From: Escherichia phage KK4
Strand: one strand, 5' to 3'
Length of the DNA: 64,000 nucleotides
Sequence record: OR327750.1
Notes under the pieces: model-generated
Seen by the model: only the letters and a program-made list of their open reading frames with translations
What the model was told of the DNA's origin: nothing
Database searches by the model: none
Shown here: piece after piece, positions 4,371-63,833 of the stretch
Numbering within the stretch: the stretch's first letter is position 1
Layout: each line of letters begins with the position of its first letter
Program-made: the position numbers and the translations under genes

Positions 4371-5372
4371 TTACTTAATTAACTGTAAAGCTTGTTCAAG
4401 ACGATCCAAGCGATTAACAGATTCTTCCCAAATCCTTTTAGCCTGCTCATATTCTTTCTGTGCTTTATTAGAAATTTCTAGAACTTCTTTATAAGCTTTT
4501 TCTAGTGCAATAACTTCTGGACGAATTTCTACCGATTCAGGTGAATCATCAAGATTATCCATTAGTTCCTCAAGGGTAGTTTCTTCTTTAGGGGTATTCA
4601 CAATTTCTTCACATTTTTGTTGATAAATTTCTTTATTAGTAGGTGAGTACGCGCACTTTACTTCACGAAGACTAACTACAATTTTATATCCTTCCCAACC
4701 GCATATATTCTTAAAAGGATAAGTATGAATATTTTCTACTGTTTCCATACAAAGTAATGCGGTCTCTAACTGACGAGTTATATCGCTAGCAATTGAGAAA
4801 AATTTATTAATGTTCTTTTGATTAGCTTCTGGTGTAAAAAATTCATAATTCACAAAAATAGCTGCTTTATTTTTATCAAGCTCATATTCTTTTATGATAA
4901 TCATATCAGAAGCCCAAGGATGGATTTGACGATAATCACCATAGCATAATTTAGAAGCTGATTTTAGAATTTGCTTCTTGAAAAGTCTAAAATTACTAAT
5001 CCAACGACGAGTAAAAATATTCTCAGGGTCTTCTTTATTATTAAGATGATAAGAATTAACATCACCGAACCAACTGTATCCTACTACATCTTTAGTTCGT
5101 TTAATTTCTTTCCCAAATTTACCAAGAATATCTTGATTAACTAAATATGAAAGAAGACGAGAACCTTTAAAAGTTTCCTTAATATCATCTTTATATTCGC
5201 GACTAGAAATTTTATGAACTTCATGAATAAATTTGCTGGAAGAAACAATACTTGCATCAGTATTATTGAGCCATTGATTGATAATGGAAATAACACTATT
5301 CTGACTAAACACAGGTTTAACTTTATCATCAATAACGCTATTGAATGATTTGATATATTCGTTACGAGTCAT
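4371..5372 (-). CDS. hypothetical protein, paralog family member 2 (333 aa from ATG with GAGGAG Shine-Dalgarno)
   Basis: Shares RxW..F(R/K)KQ(I/L)..ASxL core and C-terminal coiled coil with neighbours. Confidence 0.6.
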   Translation of the reverse strand: MTRNEYIKSFNSVIDDKVKPVFSQNSVISIINQWLNNTDASIVSSSKFIHEVHKISSREYKDDIKETFKGSRLLSYLVNQDILGKFGKEIKRTKDVVGYSWFGDVNSYHLNNKEDPENIFTRRWISNFRLFKKQILKSASKLCYGDYRQIHPWASDMIIIKEYELDKNKAAIFVNYEFFTPEANQKNINKFFSIASDITRQLETALLCMETVENIHTYPFKNICGWEGYKIVVSLREVKCAYSPTNKEIYQQKCEEIVNTPKEETTLEELMDNLDDSPESVEIRPEVIALEKAYKEVLEISNKAQKEYEQAKRIWEESVNRLDRLEQALQLIK

Positions 5373-9894: not shown

Positions 9895-10908
9895 TCATTT
9901 ATAATAACTTCGGTGGTTTTCAAGATAAACCCTCTCAAGGAAGTCATCCCAAAAACCCATGTCTACTTTTTGCTGCATACCGTTCTTAGAAGCTTCAATG
10001 GATGCTGCTTCTACTTGATCGACCACATCTTCCAAAAACTCTTGAACAGTTTTAAATGGGTGTTTACCCAGCTTCACGTCGAGAATAAATGGAGCGTCTT
10101 GAAGTGGATAGACTAAGTCACCAGTTTTGTAAATTTCCAATAGTTGGAGTCCACCACGACAAGCATGACTCAGAGCTTTCCAGTCAATGCCCTCATTCGC
10201 TTCAGCCTTACGAGCACGTTCGCCGTATTCAGCATCTAATTTGTTCAGTGACTGCTTAAGCTCAATAAGAGAAAGTGTTGTCTGATATTTACGACCCAAC
10301 ACAGTGTAGAACGTTTGTGGACCGGTTTTCTCATGATTATGGAATACCCATTCACAGAATTCGTTCTCTGGAAGACGATGCTTAATATCTTCAACTTTAG
10401 TGCGACGCTGCTTAATGGAACCGTCTTCTTGATAATCAACCCACTGGTCAGGGATTTGATTAACTACTTTCAATACATCACGTAATGCGGCCAAACGAGA
10501 ACCCTTGACACCGTATTTAGAAGCTTGCTTGCGGACATATCCTAAATAGGATTTCATGTTAGTTGTATAAAACCGTGAACGATTGTCTTGGATAAATTTC
10601 CATACATCAGGTAAATCAGATTTAACCACTAGTTCAGGTGGAGTGTGGAGCATATCCAATGCTACAGTTTCACCATCTGCAGCTAATTTAAAGAAATACT
10701 TAAGACTGTATAGTTCATGGTCAATATCATCTTTAGTGTTTTTAGATGATGTGTTGTTCGTGTTTTTACTCATATGCTCTTTAACATTTCCGATAAGAAT
10801 ATCGCGAGCAGGAGGAACAAAGATTTCTTTAAAATCTACATCAGATTCTGGAGTAGAAGTTCCATAAAGATGACTACCAAAATAGCTTTTCATTACTGTT
10901 TTCATCAT
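9895..10908 (-). CDS. Pol-beta-superfamily nucleotidyltransferase-fold protein, 337 aa
   Basis: N-terminal FGSHLYGTSTPESDVDF fits hG[GS]x9-13DhDh; followed by minus-strand terminator. Confidence 0.55.
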   Translation of the reverse strand: MMKTVMKSYFGSHLYGTSTPESDVDFKEIFVPPARDILIGNVKEHMSKNTNNTSSKNTKDDIDHELYSLKYFFKLAADGETVALDMLHTPPELVVKSDLPDVWKFIQDNRSRFYTTNMKSYLGYVRKQASKYGVKGSRLAALRDVLKVVNQIPDQWVDYQEDGSIKQRRTKVEDIKHRLPENEFCEWVFHNHEKTGPQTFYTVLGRKYQTTLSLIELKQSLNKLDAEYGERARKAEANEGIDWKALSHACRGGLQLLEIYKTGDLVYPLQDAPFILDVKLGKHPFKTVQEFLEDVVDQVEAASIEASKNGMQQKVDMGFWDDFLERVYLENHRSYYK

Positions 10909-14994: not shown

Positions 14995-15003
14995 ATCACC
15001 TTC

Positions 15004-15189
15004 TTAAAGCGTATTCACATAAGCTATTAATTCGTTTTCTTTCTTATCAAACCGGTCAGCAAATTCTTCTTGCTGATCGGGAGATAGCGGGCCATATTCA
15101 TCATAAAAGGTGTTTGCTTCTGTATGCTCATCTAGAAGTTCATGGATAAGCTCAAACAATTTATCTTTTTGTTCTTTACTCAGACTCAT
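15004..15189 (-). CDS. hypothetical acidic protein, 61 aa
   Basis: Minus ORF in tk-regB interval. Confidence 0.45.
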   Translation of the reverse strand: MSLSKEQKDKLFELIHELLDEHTEANTFYDEYGPLSPDQQEEFADRFDKKENELIAYVNTL

Positions 15190-15359
15190 ATATTAATTTC
15201 CAGAAGTTTTAAAATAATTCGCTTTTGCTTAAATATTTCCATAGTTAAATGATCAGTATCTTTTTGACCAATTCCGATGGCAAAACCTTTATTAACAGCG
15301 AGTTCAATTAAATTATCAAGCTCACGTAACACTTCATATTGTAACTCAGAACTATTCAT
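15186..15359 (-). CDS. hypothetical protein, 57 aa (below ORF-track cutoff)
   Basis: Manual translation MNSSELQYEVLRELDNLIELAVNKGFAIGIGQKDTDHLTMEIFKQKRIILKLLEINI; ATGA overlaps at both ends. Confidence 0.35.
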   Translation of the reverse strand: MNSSELQYEVLRELDNLIELAVNKGFAIGIGQKDTDHLTMEIFKQKRIILKLLEINI

Positions 15360-15562
15360 TTTGGTTTACCTTCTTTAACAAAATCGGGATAAGGATAAAA
15401 TCCTGAATAAAATCCTTCACCTTTATGATTAATGCATCCTTTATTAGAGCAATAGCACCAATAATCGAAATCACAAGCCATTTCATCATTGCATAAAGCA
15501 AAAACAACTGGCCATTTACACTTTTCACAATGTGCATTTTTAAGAATGCTAGTTTGGCTCAT
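15356..15562 (-). CDS. Cys-rich putative zinc-binding protein, 68 aa
   Basis: HCEKCKW...CNDEMACDFDYWCYCSNKGC; ATGA overlap with upstream stop. Confidence 0.45.
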   Translation of the reverse strand: MSQTSILKNAHCEKCKWPVVFALCNDEMACDFDYWCYCSNKGCINHKGEGFYSGFYPYPDFVKEGKPK

Positions 15563-15771
15563 AACCATGTAACCTTTAAGCAATATTCTTCTACATGCTG
15601 TTTACGACCTTTCTTATCAATAAAGGTATATTCAACGAATGTTCCAATATAGTCTTTATCTACATCATGTGGACTATTAATTGGGCATTTAGTACGGCAA
15701 ATGCGTTCCCATTGACGAATAATTTCTGCTTTGTTTTTAGGATCAAACGGATGCGGGTAATGTGCTTTCAT
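15559..15771 (-). CDS. hypothetical protein, 70 aa
   Basis: Overlaps 3-prime end of macro-domain gene by 29 nt in another frame. Confidence 0.4.
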   Translation of the reverse strand: MKAHYPHPFDPKNKAEIIRQWERICRTKCPINSPHDVDKDYIGTFVEYTFIDKKGRKQHVEEYCLKVTWL

Positions 15772-16222
15772 AATCCACCACTATTAAATCAATATCAGGA
15801 GTAAACATGTCGATTAATTTAGAAACCTTATCCCAATCACCGCCAGCAATACCACAACCTATGCGTGGAATGTAAATTACCGGTTTAAACAAAAGGGTTT
15901 CTGCCTGTAGATTTAATTCTATCATGCAGTTTACTAAAGCACCATAATCAAAATTAGGACCCGGTTCGTATTGCGTATACAAATTATAGCACATACTAAA
16001 TCCTGTAGGATTATGTTTAAAAACAATAGACATATCGCCTAATTTATCACGAGAACCGTACTCGGTAGTAGTTTTATCTATTTCTAAAATTTTGGGATAG
16101 GCTCTTGCTAATTGACCTGCTACGCCAGAGCCCATTGTGTGGAAGCAATTGCACCCGTGCGCAATAATATTACCTTGAAGAAATAGGGCGACAATATCGC
16201 CCTTGATATATTTTACAATCAT
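15743..16222 (-). CDS. macro-domain protein (ADP-ribose binding/processing fold)
   Basis: GDIVALFLQGNIIAHGCNCFHTMGSGVAGQLARAYP and PRIGCGIAGGDW resemble macrodomain glycine-rich phosphate-binding loops. Confidence 0.6.
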   Translation of the reverse strand: MIVKYIKGDIVALFLQGNIIAHGCNCFHTMGSGVAGQLARAYPKILEIDKTTTEYGSRDKLGDMSIVFKHNPTGFSMCYNLYTQYEPGPNFDYGALVNCMIELNLQAETLLFKPVIYIPRIGCGIAGGDWDKVSKLIDMFTPDIDLIVVDYESTLPASV

Positions 16223-16560
16223 CTAGTACTCAATCCTCGATTATAAGAATCTACTAAACGGTCAACCATTGAATGACAAGCGGCTTTATCTTTCTCCTCC
16301 GCAACTGAACATTCTAAGGTATTCCACTTTTTAGCATATCGTTTTAATAAAGTATCGTTCTTGTATCTGCTTGATTTATCTCTTTCTCCGTCTTTATATG
16401 CATATATTAATTTCTGCGCAAATTCAGCTTGGCATGCTTTATTTTTCCCGCAATAATCCGCGGCAGTACGGTTTACATACTCTCTAATTTCAGTATATGA
16501 TGTATTTGCTAACGCAGAAAATGAAATTAATCCTATACATAAAACCAAAATTTTAGTCAT
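16219..16560 (-). CDS. secreted small protein with signal peptide, 113 aa
   Basis: N-terminus MTKILVLCIGLISFSALANTS; four Cys. Confidence 0.5.
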   Translation of the reverse strand: MTKILVLCIGLISFSALANTSYTEIREYVNRTAADYCGKNKACQAEFAQKLIYAYKDGERDKSSRYKNDTLLKRYAKKWNTLECSVAEEKDKAACHSMVDRLVDSYNRGLSTR

Positions 16561-17098
16561 TTACTATTTCCAAAAGTTTATTATTTTTAAGGTAGTTAGC
16601 CTTTTCTAGGACTTCAGAAGCATATTTAGAACCTGCTTTAACATTCCATCCCGAATTATAAGAGGATATTGCCTTTCTTATATCACCCTTATGTATATTT
16701 AACCAATAAGAAAGTTCAATGTACGCCCAGGAAGCTGAATTGGACCGTTTATTCAACATTCTTTTTATTTCGGCATCGGTCATATTATAACCAAGTTCCT
16801 TAACTCTTGCTCGCATGGTCGGCAAATAATTTTGGAACATTCCGTAGGCATGATGCTTTGGTTTAGATTTTAAATTAACTCCAGCAGAGCTTTCTTGCCA
16901 TAAAATAGCAGCCATTATATGACCCAATCCGCTCTTATGGATATTTTTGTGTGTTTTATATTTTCCATCCTTAGAAAATTGTTCCCCGAATTGATACGCG
17001 TAACGCATGTTATCGAGTTGGACATTACTGAAAGTATGCTCGGAGCTATGTGCCATCATTGAAATGGCCAATAGACCAGCGAGTAGTGCTTTTCTCAT
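16553..17098 (-). CDS. secreted lytic-transglycosylase-like protein (SLT domain)
   Basis: Signal peptide MRKALLAGLLAISMMAHS; WQESSAG, YGMFQ and SSYNSGWN fit SLT catalytic-Glu and family motifs. Confidence 0.55.
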   Translation of the reverse strand: MRKALLAGLLAISMMAHSSEHTFSNVQLDNMRYAYQFGEQFSKDGKYKTHKNIHKSGLGHIMAAILWQESSAGVNLKSKPKHHAYGMFQNYLPTMRARVKELGYNMTDAEIKRMLNKRSNSASWAYIELSYWLNIHKGDIRKAISSYNSGWNVKAGSKYASEVLEKANYLKNNKLLEIVND

Positions 17099-17105
17099 GC
17101 TTACC

Positions 17106-17567
17106 TCATTGAGTTTTAATTACTGCTTTAGAAGCCTTTCCTGGTAAACGACGACTGTTGATAATTGCCATCCTGCATTGAAGTGACGGGTCTTTGAACT
17201 TCTCGTTAGGTTTACAAACTGTAAATCCAAGCCAAAGATTTCCATCTGTGATTTCTAAACGCCCAGGACGATATTCAATCCCATCAATAAAATCCTCATC
17301 AATATCAGGGCGTGGAGGCATACTCAAGAATTCATTAACTTCTAAAACATGGTCTTTTATTTTATGGAATAATTCAAAAACATATGTCTCATCAATCTCC
17401 CGTTGAATTGCACGATCAAGAAGATGCTGAGAATATTTTAGATGAAACGATGAGACCCCTGCTGCTTTTGATGCCTCACGAATCTCATTGTTAATTTGAC
17501 GAAACTCCGACTCAAAGTGACGACGGAGCTTATTTCGACGGATAAAAACTTCTGTGTTGATAGTCAT
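17106..17567 (-). CDS. regB: endoribonuclease RegB
   Basis: 153 aa, MTINTEVFIRRNKLRRHFESEFRQINNEIREASKAAG... matches T4 RegB from memory; consensus early promoter upstream. Confidence 0.9.
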   Translation of the reverse strand: MTINTEVFIRRNKLRRHFESEFRQINNEIREASKAAGVSSFHLKYSQHLLDRAIQREIDETYVFELFHKIKDHVLEVNEFLSMPPRPDIDEDFIDGIEYRPGRLEITDGNLWLGFTVCKPNEKFKDPSLQCRMAIINSRRLPGKASKAVIKTQ

Positions 17568-17594
17568 GTTATTCTCCTCTTAACTGATAGAAAA

Positions 17595-17624
17595 ATTATA
17601 CCACAGTCAAGAGGAAAAGTAAAC
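17595..17624 (-). promoter_or_regulatory. early promoter of regB
   Basis: GTTTAC-N18-TATAAT (consensus -10), ~28 nt upstream of regB ATG. Confidence 0.65.
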
Positions 17625-17626
17625 AG

Positions 17627-17905
17627 TTATTCTTTAAATCTAATCAATTTATTCATAGACTTTGAAACTTCTGCACGAACCTCATGTAGATTTTTGAGCT
17701 GTTCAAGACGCTGCTCATAGTAAGCAATTTCATCTTCTTCGAGACAGTCCTGTGAATCTTCTTTAAGATACCGTGCATAGTCCTGGAAAGCGTTACGGAC
17801 TACTTCCTGGAAGTCATCAAGACTTTGAATTTTCTTAGGAGCAGCAGACACACGACGAGGGGCAGTATAATACTCATAACCAAACCCTGCGCTTAATTGA
17901 GCCAT
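17627..17905 (-). CDS. hypothetical protein, 92 aa (vs.3 position)
   Basis: ATG after AGGA; TAATG overlap with upstream gene. Confidence 0.45.
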
Positions 17906-18171
17906 TAATATTTTTCCTCTGGTTGGAACACAGCACGACAAGCCCACATACTAGCTTCTTTGAGTTTCGTTTTAGCAATAGCTAACTGATCGAGGCTTTC
18001 AGCATAATTCTTCGCGAGTTCAAAGTCTTCGCAATTATCTAGTGCTTCCCAGAATTCATCATATAAAGCATCAAAGATAAGTCCTAAACGAACTTCAGCG
18101 TCTTTAATAGCATTTACTTTACCGATTTTTTCGTCGGTATGTGGCTTATAACCTTTAATATCTTCAATCAT
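17905..18171 (-). CDS. hypothetical protein, 88 aa (vs.4 position; candidate Acb2-like sponge by synteny only)
   Basis: Second ORF after regB; ATGATTGA overlap with upstream gene. Confidence 0.4.
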
Positions 18172-18385
18172 ATTTGACTTCCTCACCAGTACATAAATCG
18201 TATTCAACTAAACGAATAGGTTCATGAATGCCATATCCCTGAACAGAAATTTCTGTCGTAGGATAAATTCCACTAATATCACCCATATTCCACGCTTCAT
18301 TAAATTGCTGTTCGCCTGAATTACTAAACCATTCTGCGAAAGCATTTAACACATCTTTAGAACCTTCAATAATTATCTTTGCCAT
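18164..18385 (-). CDS. hypothetical protein, 73 aa
   Basis: Minus ORF, ATG start. Confidence 0.45.
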   Translation of the reverse strand: MAKIIIEGSKDVLNAFAEWFSNSGEQQFNEAWNMGDISGIYPTTEISVQGYGIHEPIRLVEYDLCTGEEVKYD

Positions 18386-18747
18386 TACAAGCTCTCAGTA
18401 AAGGTACGAGCGATAACGTCGCGCTGCTGTTCCGGAGTCAGAGAGTTAAAGCGAACTGCATAACCGGATACACGGATGGTCAGCTGCGGATATTTTTCCG
18501 GATGCTTAACTGCATCTTCCAGAGTTTCACGACGCAGAACGTTAACGTTCAGGTGTTGACCACCTTCAATTTTAACTGTAGGCTGTTGCTCAATTTCAAT
18601 TTCACGGGCATGCAAACCATAGAAAATTTCTGGGTCTACAAAAGAGTCCTCTTTAAAGGTTTTAGAGACAATAATTCGTGCTTGAATACCATCTTCAAAA
18701 TAAATAGTACCTTTATGTGTGCCTTCAAGAATTTGATATGCTTTCAT
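18385..18747 (-). CDS. autonomous glycyl-radical cofactor, GrcA/YfiD-like (T4 Y06I-like)
   Basis: C-terminal ~60 aa [63 protein letters not shown] matches E. coli GrcA glycyl-radical domain from memory; locally higher GC. Confidence 0.8.
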
Positions 18748-18753
18748 ATAACC

Positions 18754-19083
18754 TCAATTAGAAAATAATTTTATCCAAGATTGTTCTTTAATTAAAAATG
18801 GCTCAGAATCATATGCCATTAAACTTTGAGTAATTAATCCTTTAAATGGTCCATCAATAAATTCCATGGTAAAATATGGAATTTTATTCATTAATCTTGC
18901 ATTAGGAGCAGTGCACAAAACTCTGCATCCTTTGAATACACCTTTTTGTAATTTGTATTGCTTGGGATAAAATTCGCTCAAGACGTTGTTATTTGCCAAA
19001 ATTTCAAAATGATTCACCAATTTATTTTTAATAGTTTTTGGCGAAAAATAAAGATATTCGAAAAGTTGCGTATCTGTCATCAT
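18754..19083 (-). CDS. hypothetical protein, ~109 aa
   Basis: Start at tandem ATG ATG overlapping upstream stop. Confidence 0.45.
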   Translation of the reverse strand: MMTDTQLFEYLYFSPKTIKNKLVNHFEILANNNVLSEFYPKQYKLQKGVFKGCRVLCTAPNARLMNKIPYFTMEFIDGPFKGLITQSLMAYDSEPFLIKEQSWIKLFSN

Positions 19084-19619
19084 TGCATTCCAATTACGAA
19101 AAACTGCGGACGAGTAATACCGCCAATGCAGCATTTACTATTGCAGCAGTGTTGCACAGTTTCAATATGAATATCGTAAATCTTATCCATATCAGGAGAT
19201 TTGACAGGCTCATCAATTATATACAAAATTCGCGAAAGCGATAAACCTCTGAACTTGCTTCCTTTATTACCAATAAAACTGCGTACAGAATCAGTAAATA
19301 AACGAAAACGTATATCATCATTAGAATAACGTGAAAATTCCTTTTTAATGTTATTTGCAGAAATTTTAGCGTAAGCTGAAGTATTAGAAAGAACAATAAC
19401 TGTTCCGCCATCATACAACCAATTAGCAGCAAAGTTAGTCACAGCAATTGATTTACCAGATTGACGTCCACCGTCTAGTCGAAGTGTGCAATACTGTTTA
19501 AGCAAGTCTTCAAATGGCAGGATATATTCGTTTTTACAAATTTCTTCTACTCTAGCATCAGAATGGTGTGTAAAAGCATTCATCAGGGATAGATAAGGAC
19601 CAGTTAAAAATGTTCTCAT
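19080..19619 (-). CDS. small P-loop NTPase-like protein, 179 aa from ATG after AGAGAGAA
   Basis: Walker A GGRQSGKS and Walker-B-like ILYIIDEP. Confidence 0.5.
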   Translation of the reverse strand: MRTFLTGPYLSLMNAFTHHSDARVEEICKNEYILPFEDLLKQYCTLRLDGGRQSGKSIAVTNFAANWLYDGGTVIVLSNTSAYAKISANNIKKEFSRYSNDDIRFRLFTDSVRSFIGNKGSKFRGLSLSRILYIIDEPVKSPDMDKIYDIHIETVQHCCNSKCCIGGITRPQFFVIGMQ

Positions 19620-19764
19620 TTTATTCTCTCTAAATTTGGGCCATTCCATGGCGCATGAATTGTCCATTTCTGTATTTACCCATTACCGCACTTGGGCTCG
19701 ACCTTATTACAGGTTGGTGGGAATCCCTCACAGAATCATGAGGTCCAGGTTATTCCCATGTTAT

Positions 19765-20181
19765 TTAAATGTAAATATTTTTGCCGTAATACTTATACCA
19801 GTGTGGCTTCATTAAAATTTTTTCATCGAGTCGTTGTTGACTCAACTTAATAGCTGATTTGCATGGATTATAATCATTTTTCCATTCTACTGGAATATCG
19901 CTGATGTCAGGAACTTCAGTATCTTTTATACTGAACCCGCGTTTTAAGCATTCCGTTATAATGTCCGATTGACGCTTTCGCAAAAATTCTAACTTATCGT
20001 AAAAGAAAGTAACATGACCAGAACCTAAAATAAATTTAGAAGATATTTTAAAATCTTTAACGCGCTTACCGTTTGCCACATGCTTACGAACTATACCAAA
20101 AACACGCGGCAATTCACGGTATTCTGCGATTAAATGTTGATCAGCAAGTTCAGATACTAAAGTCAAATTAATACGAGTCAT
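19765..20181 (-). CDS. denV: endonuclease V (pyrimidine dimer DNA glycosylase)
   Basis: 138 aa; [37 protein letters not shown] matches T4 DenV from memory. Confidence 0.9.
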
Positions 20182-20206
20182 TTTATCCCTCCAAGTAACT
20201 GTGAAT

Positions 20207-20236
20207 ATACTATCACAATTCTAGGAGAAAGTAAAT
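20207..20236 (-). promoter_or_regulatory. early promoter of denV
   Basis: ATTTAC-N18-TAGTAT on minus strand. Confidence 0.5.
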
Positions 20237-20240
20237 AGCT

Positions 20241-20771
<531 letters not shown>

Positions 20772-21227
20772 TTAAAAGAGGCTGTTCATTATTCGGTAAA
20801 GTGAAGGACCCATCACATATTGCCACTGAGTACGAGGAATAAGAGCAAAAGCATCCATCTCTGGAATCATAACGCCATCTTTATTTTCAAAATAAGACTC
20901 GCAATGGCAATTTCTAAACATCTCATGCTTTACTGGAATCGTATAATAAAATAACTGTAAGTCTTTATTACTAGAATATTTAAATACACCTAAGTCTTCT
21001 AGAAGGTCTGGATTATAATCGATAAAACCAGTCTCTTCTGAGCATTCTCTTTTTGCAGCTTCCAGTGCATTCAAATCAGAACTTTCTACACGCCCCTTTG
21101 GAATATCCCAGCGATGTGCAATCATTCCAGGTTTACGAGAACCGGTAACTCGTCCCATAAATAAATCTTTATCTTCTGTCATAAAGATAATACCAGCTGA
21201 TAATGTTTTCATTTTAATTTCCTGCAT
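20772..21227 (-). CDS. nudE: Nudix hydrolase NudE
   Basis: 151 aa; Nudix box GRVESSDLNALEAAKRECSEETG. Confidence 0.85.
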   Translation of the reverse strand: MQEIKMKTLSAGIIFMTEDKDLFMGRVTGSRKPGMIAHRWDIPKGRVESSDLNALEAAKRECSEETGFIDYNPDLLEDLGVFKYSSNKDLQLFYYTIPVKHEMFRNCHCESYFENKDGVMIPEMDAFALIPRTQWQYVMGPSLYRIMNSLF

Positions 21228-21697
21228 TCAGTGATAAAATTATTTAATTTTTGAGCATATTTCTTTTCATCAAAAATCTTTTGTTGTCTGCGTAAACGCC
21301 ATGGCATTTCAATGAACATACGCCATATTCCTGATAATACTGCTGCTGTAAAAATATTAACAAGTATAGTTAAAAGAACCCAATCTCCTATTCTGTCCAT
21401 TGGATTTTTTATAAAAAAGTAAAATACGAACGATGATATAGGAAGACTAATGATATACCACAGAAGAACCTTCTTATCTGTGAACCAATCAGCATTCGTT
21501 AACTTAGCGCGACCGTTTTGAATACATACGAACTTATCATCTGTTACAGTAAATGGCTTAGCTGCTTGATATCCCATTCTAAACTCCCTAATTAATCGTT
21601 TCTTTGTATCTTCAGAACAGCCGCTCCAGTCAACTCTATCAACTGAAATGCCATCGTCCCCATCATCTAAATCATACCAGCGAGTTTTTAAAATCAT
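21209..21697 (-). CDS. small membrane protein, 162 aa (2 predicted TM helices)
   Basis: Hydrophobic segments LLWYIISLPISSFVFYFFI and WVLLTILVNIFTAAVLSGIW; C-terminal FITECRKLK. Confidence 0.5.
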   Translation of the reverse strand: MILKTRWYDLDDGDDGISVDRVDWSGCSEDTKKRLIREFRMGYQAAKPFTVTDDKFVCIQNGRAKLTNADWFTDKKVLLWYIISLPISSFVFYFFIKNPMDRIGDWVLLTILVNIFTAAVLSGIWRMFIEMPWRLRRQQKIFDEKKYAQKLNNFITECRKLK

Positions 21698-22056
21698 TTA
21701 ATTTTCCTACAATCACTCACAAACTCTTCCATTGATTCTTTTTCAATATAAGACATATAGCTATTATATTCCTTTAATTGTATTTTGTAATCCTTTTTTC
21801 TTTGCCAATTTATTTTAAAATTATCATAATGAAAATATAACATGGTACCAAAGAATGAAAATAATGAAATCGCTATAGTATAACAAAGCTCACTCCAAAC
21901 TTCTGTTATATTTACTGTGCCGTCGATGTTTAAAATAAGACAGTCAATCATTAATCCAATAAGACTACCTGCAAGAGCTGCAAATGCTGATATGGCAAGA
22001 ATTAATAGTGCCTCTGGAAACGAATATTTGACTTTATTTAGTTTTGGCTTTTGCAT
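21694..22056 (-). CDS. small membrane protein, 120 aa (2 predicted TM helices)
   Basis: Hydrophobic segments; C-terminal EEFVSDCRKIK; ATGA overlap. Confidence 0.5.
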   Translation of the reverse strand: MQKPKLNKVKYSFPEALLILAISAFAALAGSLIGLMIDCLILNIDGTVNITEVWSELCYTIAISLFSFFGTMLYFHYDNFKINWQRKKDYKIQLKEYNSYMSYIEKESMEEFVSDCRKIK

Positions 22057-28592: not shown

Positions 28593-29289
<697 letters not shown>

Positions 29290-62830: not shown

Positions 62831-63833
62831 AACTTACCAATTCAATCCAAGCCGGACGAAGTACATCTTGTACCATTTTAACTAATTCCTTTTTAATCAA
62901 AGAAGGATTATCTGCTTGAGTTAGAGTAATACCTTCACGAGAAGTTTCTTCCAAAATATCTTGAACAGTTAGCCCCATCACCTTTCCAAAATCCTTTGGA
63001 CCAATTTCGCCAATTTTAGAAATAACGTTATTTACTCGGTTCAGTGTAACGTAACAAGCTAAAATTCCCACCAATTTGTTATCAGCTTCTGATAGTTCAA
63101 CTTTAGCTTTAATAGGCTTATCAGACTTTTTCTTTTCACTAAATTTGGAATTCTTGCATTTAATTGCTACACGATTTCCATTACGAAGCCAAGAAGGATA
63201 ACAAGGTTTCAATACATATCCTTCAGCGGTAAATACTTCGCCTTTTGCTTCGGCATTCCAAATGCATTTATTTGCATCAACTAATCCGGCATGGTCTACT
63301 GTAAAATTATAATCTTGGACGACAGAATCTAAATCATTTGGCAATTTAATAAGCTCTTCAAATTTACCACGACCTAAAAGTGGAGCCATTTTAAATTTAA
63401 ATGTATTACAGAATGATTCCATCATATAATCGTCGACATAAGTCACATCACCACTTTCTGTAGTGACAATAATGTCAAATACATAAAAATCTTTATCGCC
63501 ATAATCAACATTCTTCTGAATGCCAGGTCCAGCGAATTCGCCAAAGACTTGATAAGATACAACCGCTGAGGTTTCCATAATATCTTGTACTGCTTTAATG
63601 GAATCAGCGTAATTCTTTAGAATAATTTCATACCCAAAGAAATCTTCAGCAGGAAGAATAGGACCAGTGCGTTTAGCGCAAGTTACTTTATCACGCTCAA
63701 TAATCAATGAGAAATTTGTACCATGAATCTTTTCACGAGCTACCCACTCCCCACCAGTCAATCCCAAGCTATAAAGTTTTTCAATAAATTTAGAGTTGTA
63801 ATGATTTTCAAGACTGCTATACTTTTTAAACAT
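62829..63833 (-). CDS. rnlB: RNA ligase 2
   Basis: 334 aa; nucleotidyltransferase motif I KIHG (adenylated Lys); matches T4 Rnl2 from memory. Confidence 0.9.

Follow-up and report, generated by a model that had tools for sequence, protein, structure and literature searches.

A vs.4 (acb2) gene in Escherichia phage KK4 that closely resembles the T4 cyclic-dinucleotide sponge in sequence and predicted fold

In a stretch of 64,000 nucleotides from Escherichia phage KK4 (OR327750.1; hereafter the window), we identify a small open reading frame as, with high confidence, vs.4 (acb2), the cyclic-dinucleotide sponge gene of T4-like phages (Tequatrovirus). The coding sequence occupies positions 17905..18171 on the minus strand and comprises 88 codons plus a TAA stop, as supported by the ORF list, the match to PDB entry 7UQ2, the Pfam family PF24729 and a structural model. 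These are the exact boundaries given in a first-pass annotation of the window, which had left the strand unstated. The assignment draws on direct observation of sequence identity, family membership, fold, functional-residue retention and synteny. The gene, the family and the phage lineage are all already known, and so is the protein: identical 88-aa products are deposited for other phages, such as ECML-123-2 and vB_EcoM-G3F6 (tblastn, 100%), and tblastn recovers homologs from 1239 phage records.

In a phmmer search of all PDB chains, the closest match to the KK4 protein is Vs.4 of phage T4 (7UQ2, titled 'Vs.4 from T4 phage in complex with cGAMP'), to which it is identical at 84 of 88 positions (95.5%) from end to end, with an E value of 8.2e-54. 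The next matches, at E values of ~0.01 and in the same register, are the structures 8IXZ and 8H2J of Acb2 ('p26') from Pseudomonas phage PaMx33. The Pfam family Acb2_Tad1_hairpin (PF24729) is matched with 73.6 bits (curated cutoff 27; E = 1.5e-20), and the match spans residues 7–83 of Vs.4 and profile positions 1–58 of 58. The PHROGs assignment is phrog_717, a group that carries no functional label. Alignment to T4 Vs.4/Acb2, which the first-pass annotation had proposed as a check for any similarity to Acb2 proteins, thus gives overwhelming similarity.

We modeled the Vs.4 monomer with ColabFold from an alignment of 36 homologs in which the row for the T4 locus had been left out. The model has a mean pLDDT of 87.5 and consists of two long helices, at residues 13–45 and 50–81, with no beta-strands. 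It has the fold of the Acb2 protomer, an antiparallel two-helix hairpin with short N- and C-terminal extensions. A Foldseek search of the PDB ranks the 7UQ2 chains first (TM 0.76) and PaMx33 Acb2 second (8H2X/8H2J; TM 0.73–0.74, probability 1.00), and all other matches have E values above 0.4. Taken together, the identity to T4 Vs.4, the Pfam score and the fold match to the PaMx33 protein bear out the first-pass proposal of an Acb2-type sponge at the vs.4 position, which had been made from synteny only. The PF24729 helical hairpin is also shared by Tad1, a protein larger than the hairpin alone that binds primarily gcADPR, whereas residues 7–83 of KK4 Vs.4 are entirely hairpin. Tad1 is likewise a hexameric signal sponge, with CBASS dinucleotides and trinucleotides among the ligands it can bind (PMC10680739). 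PaMx33 Acb2 (p26; 8H2J, 8H2X and 8IXZ; Huiting et al. 2023; PMC10312549) belongs to the same family and has the same fold (TM ~0.74), although it is only about 24–25% identical to KK4 Vs.4. The two proteins share dinucleotide-pocket residues, with Y11 and K26 of PaMx33 Acb2 corresponding to Y8 and K23 of Vs.4, and the PaMx33 protein, a hexamer with three dinucleotide sites, uses the same sponge mechanism that we predict for KK4.

The T4 protein offers a detailed reference for individual residues. T4 Vs.4 came to light when T4 mutants were screened genetically for sensitivity to a type II CBASS (Jenson et al. 2023, PMC10097602; also summarised in PMC10449767), and its structure at 2.0 Å reveals a hexamer with three cGAMP molecules (PMC10097602). 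Its reported KD for 3',3'-cGAMP is about 30–84 nM (PMC10097602, PMC10312549). The roles of its residues rest on mutagenesis, ITC and crystallography: Y8 and F82 engage in pi-stacking, Y8, H11, K23 and R79 make polar contacts, L29, A66, A73 and A77 together with F33 form the hexamer interface, and T12I, S74N and A77I emerged from the screen as loss-of-function alleles (PMC10097602). KK4 Vs.4 resembles T4 Vs.4 (NP_049728; 7UQ2) in its 88-aa length, its position between vs.3 and vs.5, its predicted hairpin and its contact and interface residues. The two are identical at Y8, H11, T12, K23, L29, F33, L60, A66, A73, S74, A77, R79 and F82, a set that includes all of the cGAMP contacts (Y8, H11, K23, S74, R79 and F82) as well as the helix cap T12. 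Because all five interface residues (L29, F33, A66, A73 and A77) are as in T4, the KK4 protein, which we modeled as a monomer alone, is very likely to form a hexamer.

The same residues are constrained across the family. In alignments of 27 and 36 homologs, with identities down to ~57%, Y8, K23, R79 and F82 are invariant; residues 3–30 and 66–88, which include H11 and S74, are almost invariant, whereas residues 34–65 are highly variable. The Vs.4 motifs hold in 38–42 of 42 IMG/VR loci. KK4 Vs.4 differs from the T4 protein by four substitutions (E13D, C50F, F52L and T64A), all of them outside the sites to which experiments have assigned a function. At position 13 the KK4 protein has the consensus residue of the family (D13), and the other three changes sit in the variable middle segment of the family; F50/L52 and A64 are also seen in further natural alleles of Tequatrovirus (P0001, P0002).

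We propose that the 88-aa protein folds as a two-helix hairpin and would assemble into an interlocked hexamer, in which each of three dimer interfaces would form a pocket that clamps one cyclic dinucleotide. Candidate ligands are 3',3'-cGAMP (bound at tens of nM), 2',3'-cGAMP, c-di-AMP, cUA and others, which would be held by pi-stacking from Y8 and F82 and by polar contacts from H11, K23, S74 and R79. Since the protein would sequester these signals without degrading them, CBASS would need more signal before its effector fires, and the raised threshold would allow phage replication to finish. The sponge would act alongside the nuclease Acb1 (57B), which is encoded ~10.5 kb away. From experiments with the T4 protein, we infer by analogy the hexamer assembly, the ligand affinity, the anti-CBASS effect and the lack of cyclic trinucleotide binding.

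The last of these points sets the expected ligand range. T4-Acb2 binds cyclic dinucleotides and not cA3 or cAAG, as measured by ITC and native gel (Cao et al., PMC10312549), whereas each PaMx33 Acb2 hexamer takes up two cyclic trinucleotides as well, by way of R67 and T74 (PMC10312549). The R67A substitution abolishes cA3 binding in PaMx33 Acb2, yet the D61R substitution in the T4 protein brings no gain of it, and the small pocket of T4-Acb2 is credited chiefly to a helix that lacks a kink and to altered helix angles rather than to single side chains (PMC10312549). In KK4 Vs.4, the position of PaMx33 R67 is occupied by D61, as in T4, such that the arginine of the broad-spectrum PaMx33/JBD67 subgroup is absent. 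The position of PaMx33 T74 is T68, a threonine that T4-Acb2 also has without binding cA3. Because D61 is kept and we expect no change in helix geometry, we predict that KK4 Vs.4 is a dinucleotide-only sponge and that a cA3 assay would be negative. The first-pass description of a cyclic-oligonucleotide sponge, with cA3 among the ligands to be assayed, is therefore upheld for cyclic dinucleotides but not for cA3, given D61 and the T4-Acb2 data (PMC10312549).

The substitution T64A is located on the helix that borders the trinucleotide pocket, which is non-functional in T4 Vs.4. It might, possibly in concert with the changes at the hairpin tip (C50F and F52L), subtly shift the ligand spectrum, either through a partial trinucleotide pocket or through a change in affinity for decoy nucleotides such as 2',3'-c-di-AMP and in sensitivity to the host system Panoptes. 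We regard such a shift as very improbable; if it were real, natural Tequatrovirus acb2 alleles would be functionally non-equivalent. A related reading, in which T64A unblocks the vestigial pocket and the allele binds cA3 or cAAG in addition to dinucleotides, as PaMx33 Acb2 does, strikes us as highly improbable. T64 is indeed listed among the T4-Acb2 residues likely to clash with cA3 (Y37, A57, L60, D61 and T64; PMC10312549), and the alanine of the KK4 allele aligns in the phmmer alignment with A70 of PaMx33 Acb2, which makes a hydrophobic contact with cA3 (PMC10312549). The other four clashing residues, however, are the same as in T4 (Y37, A57, L60 and D61, with T68 also retained), the essential arginine is still replaced by D61, at which even an engineered arginine gave T4-Acb2 no cA3 binding, and the size of the pocket is ascribed to helix shape and angles (PMC10312549). 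In addition, A64 is a common natural polymorphism in close relatives (P0001, P0002).

A dinucleotide sponge is also favored over a protein retargeted to another signal, such as the 3'cADPR of type I Thoeris, as has been reported for some Acb2 homologs. Thoeris-type Acb2 proteins have extra N- and C-terminal beta-strands and a pocket built from L6, V7, H5, K19 and K55, and one of them, Acb2_43, does not inhibit CBASS (PMC12393519). The KK4 pocket instead matches the T4 dinucleotide set residue for residue, and the KK4 model has no beta-strands, unlike Acb2_43 with its 3'cADPR pocket. On these grounds we reject Thoeris retargeting, to which we give a near-zero likelihood.

The boundaries of the gene follow from several lines of evidence. 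On translation of the sequence, the ATG lies at 18171..18169 and the stop codon, TAA, at 17907..17905. In the mechanical ORF list the frame is 100 aa long and begins at an in-frame upstream TTG at 18207, which explains the length of '88-100 aa' given in the first-pass annotation. Read from the ATG, the 88-aa protein agrees residue for residue with annotated T4 Vs.4 and with the construct crystallised in 7UQ2, and all Vs.4 homologs in the alignments and IMG/VR loci begin M(I/x)EDIKGY. A Shine-Dalgarno-like GAGGAAG (18178..18184, minus strand), which is the same in the aligned T4 sequence, lies 6 nt upstream of the ATG within the 3' end of vs.5 and is a putative ribosome-binding motif for vs.4. 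Because of the agreement with T4 and 7UQ2, the homolog N termini and this upstream motif, we take the ATG at 18171 as the true start; the same evidence rules out the 100-aa product from the TTG. Relative to T4, vs.4 carries 12 nucleotide differences, eight synonymous and four non-synonymous, a ratio that indicates purifying selection. These differences and the homologs in 1239 phage records mark vs.4 as a coding gene and not a chance ORF.

The neighbourhood is that of T4. A tblastn search of the window with T4 proteins recovered the order regB–vs.3–vs.4–vs.5–vs.6 (GrcA)–vs.7–vs.8–denV, so that the gene order on which the first-pass annotation had relied is indeed the T4 order. Identities to the T4 proteins are 99% for regB, 98% for vs.3, 95.5% for vs.4, 98% for vs.6, 97% for vs.7, 90% for vs.8 and 78% for denV; vs.5 was also matched, and the vs.6 product matches the Pfam family Gly_radical. 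From vs.8 to vs.3, six genes form a tight block in which neighbours are separated by –8 to +6 nt. At a larger scale, positions 17000–19200 are 100% identical, and positions 10000–34000 are 99.9% identical, to Escherichia phage GADU22 (OQ944321, Tequatrovirus).

On the downstream side, vs.3 (17627..17905, minus strand) encodes a 92-aa protein of unknown function that is 98% identical to T4 Vs.3 and belongs to phrog_2037. Its ATG shares 1 nt with the TAA of vs.4 (TAATG), and this overlap of stop and start suggests that translation of the two genes may be coupled. The GADU22 record labels both vs.3 and vs.7 'endoribonuclease RegB domain-containing protein'. No Pfam family matches Vs.3 significantly (the best is Tex_N, at 18.6 bits under a cutoff of 32), so for this protein the label looks like annotation carry-over. 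The regB gene itself follows at 17567..17109 (minus strand).

On the upstream side, vs.5 (18164..18385, minus strand) encodes a 73-aa protein of unknown function, with a full-length match to phrog_1986 and an alignment to T4. Its TGA stop overlaps the start of vs.4 by 8 nt (ATGATTGA), and its ATG overlaps the stop of vs.6 (TAATG). In T4, by contrast, vs.5 is frameshifted and ends 36 nt upstream of vs.4. The T4 reference gene (T4 63381..63557; 4382..4558 in the T4 locus, L001) encodes 58 aa and is one base short, with CTTTCGC-GAGTGG in place of the KK4 sequence CTTTCGCAGAATGG, and its +1 frame carries on the same protein to the same stop. The T4 reference thus reflects either a genuine frameshift in the gene or a sequencing error of long standing.

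Further upstream, vs.8 appears split (19080..19731, minus strand). The 219-aa T4 Vs.8 matches 19731..19627 in one frame and 19667..19083 in another; the longest ORF, of 195 aa, begins at an internal ATG, and the GADU22 record has two ORFs here. Beyond it, denV is followed by e (lysozyme) after a gap of 59 nt (19765..20735, minus strand); ipII and ipIII, which lie between denV and e in T4, have no tblastn match anywhere in the window. The lower identity of denV to T4 (78%, against 90–99% for its neighbours) suggests a mosaic junction in this region.

Crude promoter scans revealed no dedicated vs.4 promoter directly upstream of the gene. A sigma-70-type scan returned 10 sites, fewer than the 14.6 in shuffled sequences, and the nearest sigma-70-like minus-strand site upstream of vs.4 precedes denV, at 20344..20316. 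This is a strong match (region 20182..20360), as is a second, TTTACT-17-TATAAT at 17623..17595 just upstream of regB (minus strand; region 17568..17640). A crude MotA-box pattern has no match between vs.4 and denV, and the late-promoter motif TATAAATA is confined to the region upstream of e (20749–20769). No Rfam family matches positions 15000–22000 at E ≤ 1. The regB gene is preceded by a GGAG-containing Shine-Dalgarno sequence (AAGAGGAGAA), which fits the autoregulation of RegB at GGAG sites. With no vs.4-specific promoter found, we infer expression of the gene from T4, in which acb1 and acb2 are expressed predominantly in the middle and late periods (transcriptome atlas, bioRxiv 10.64898/2026.03.30.715471).

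The promoter scans, and the truncated or frameshifted copies in some related IMG/VR contigs (L044, L047 and L048), are what could be cited for vs.4 as a degenerate or silent relic that no longer has a function, a reading whose probability we put close to nil: the frame is intact and full length, with its Shine-Dalgarno-like motif and start/stop overlaps with both neighbours, all functional residues are kept, the changes are biased to synonymous sites, and the T4 ortholog is expressed and required for CBASS evasion (PMC10449767, PMC10097602, bioRxiv 10.64898/2026.03.30.715471).

The presumed sponge does not stand alone in the KK4 counter-defence repertoire. The 57B (acb1) gene lies in the same window at 28593..29051 on the minus strand, not adjacent to vs.4, and its product is 98.7% identical to T4 57B (tblastn) and matches the Pfam family Acb1 (PF23474) with 201 bits (cutoff 27). 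Where T4 has its annotated start codon the KK4 sequence reads Ile, and the first ATG is the codon that follows, at 29048. Acb1 and Acb2 serve the same purpose, the neutralisation of CBASS signals, but have unrelated folds and mechanisms: Acb1 enzymatically cleaves cyclic oligonucleotides, and Acb2 sequesters them without cleavage. Because KK4 has both acb1 and acb2, it would, like T4, oppose CBASS signals with a nuclease and a sponge.

Sequestration may also carry a cost. T4 Acb2 triggers the host system Panoptes (OptSE) by sequestering its decoy, 2',3'-c-di-AMP, which releases the OptE toxin (PMC12657218). Phages that escape Panoptes carry mutations in acb2, among them F82C, and triggering is likewise lost with Y8A (PMC12657218). 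Panoptes belongs to the host, and the KK4 window contains none of its genes. Because Y8 and F82 are both kept, KK4 Vs.4 should be sensed by Panoptes as T4 Acb2 is.

Among the 42 T4-like IMG/VR loci, vs.4/acb2 is frameshifted or truncated in three. In L044 (1501–1737) the C terminus of Vs.4 is replaced after W76, and in L047 (1501–1778) and L048 (1501–1772) the frame meets a stop after 26 and 72 aa, respectively. These broken copies could be assembly errors or natural losses of acb2, and natural loss would be an expected escape route from Panoptes-type sensing.

The value of the identification lies in correct annotation rather than in new biology. Most deposited T4-like genomes, including the GADU22 record, call vs.4 a 'hypothetical protein', although its T4 ortholog is a structurally and biochemically characterised anti-CBASS sponge. 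A T4-like phage that carries both acb1 and acb2, whether therapeutic or environmental, is predicted to evade most dinucleotide-based CBASS, and the same phage is predicted to be vulnerable to hosts that deploy the Panoptes decoy, a liability that acb2 would bring with it.
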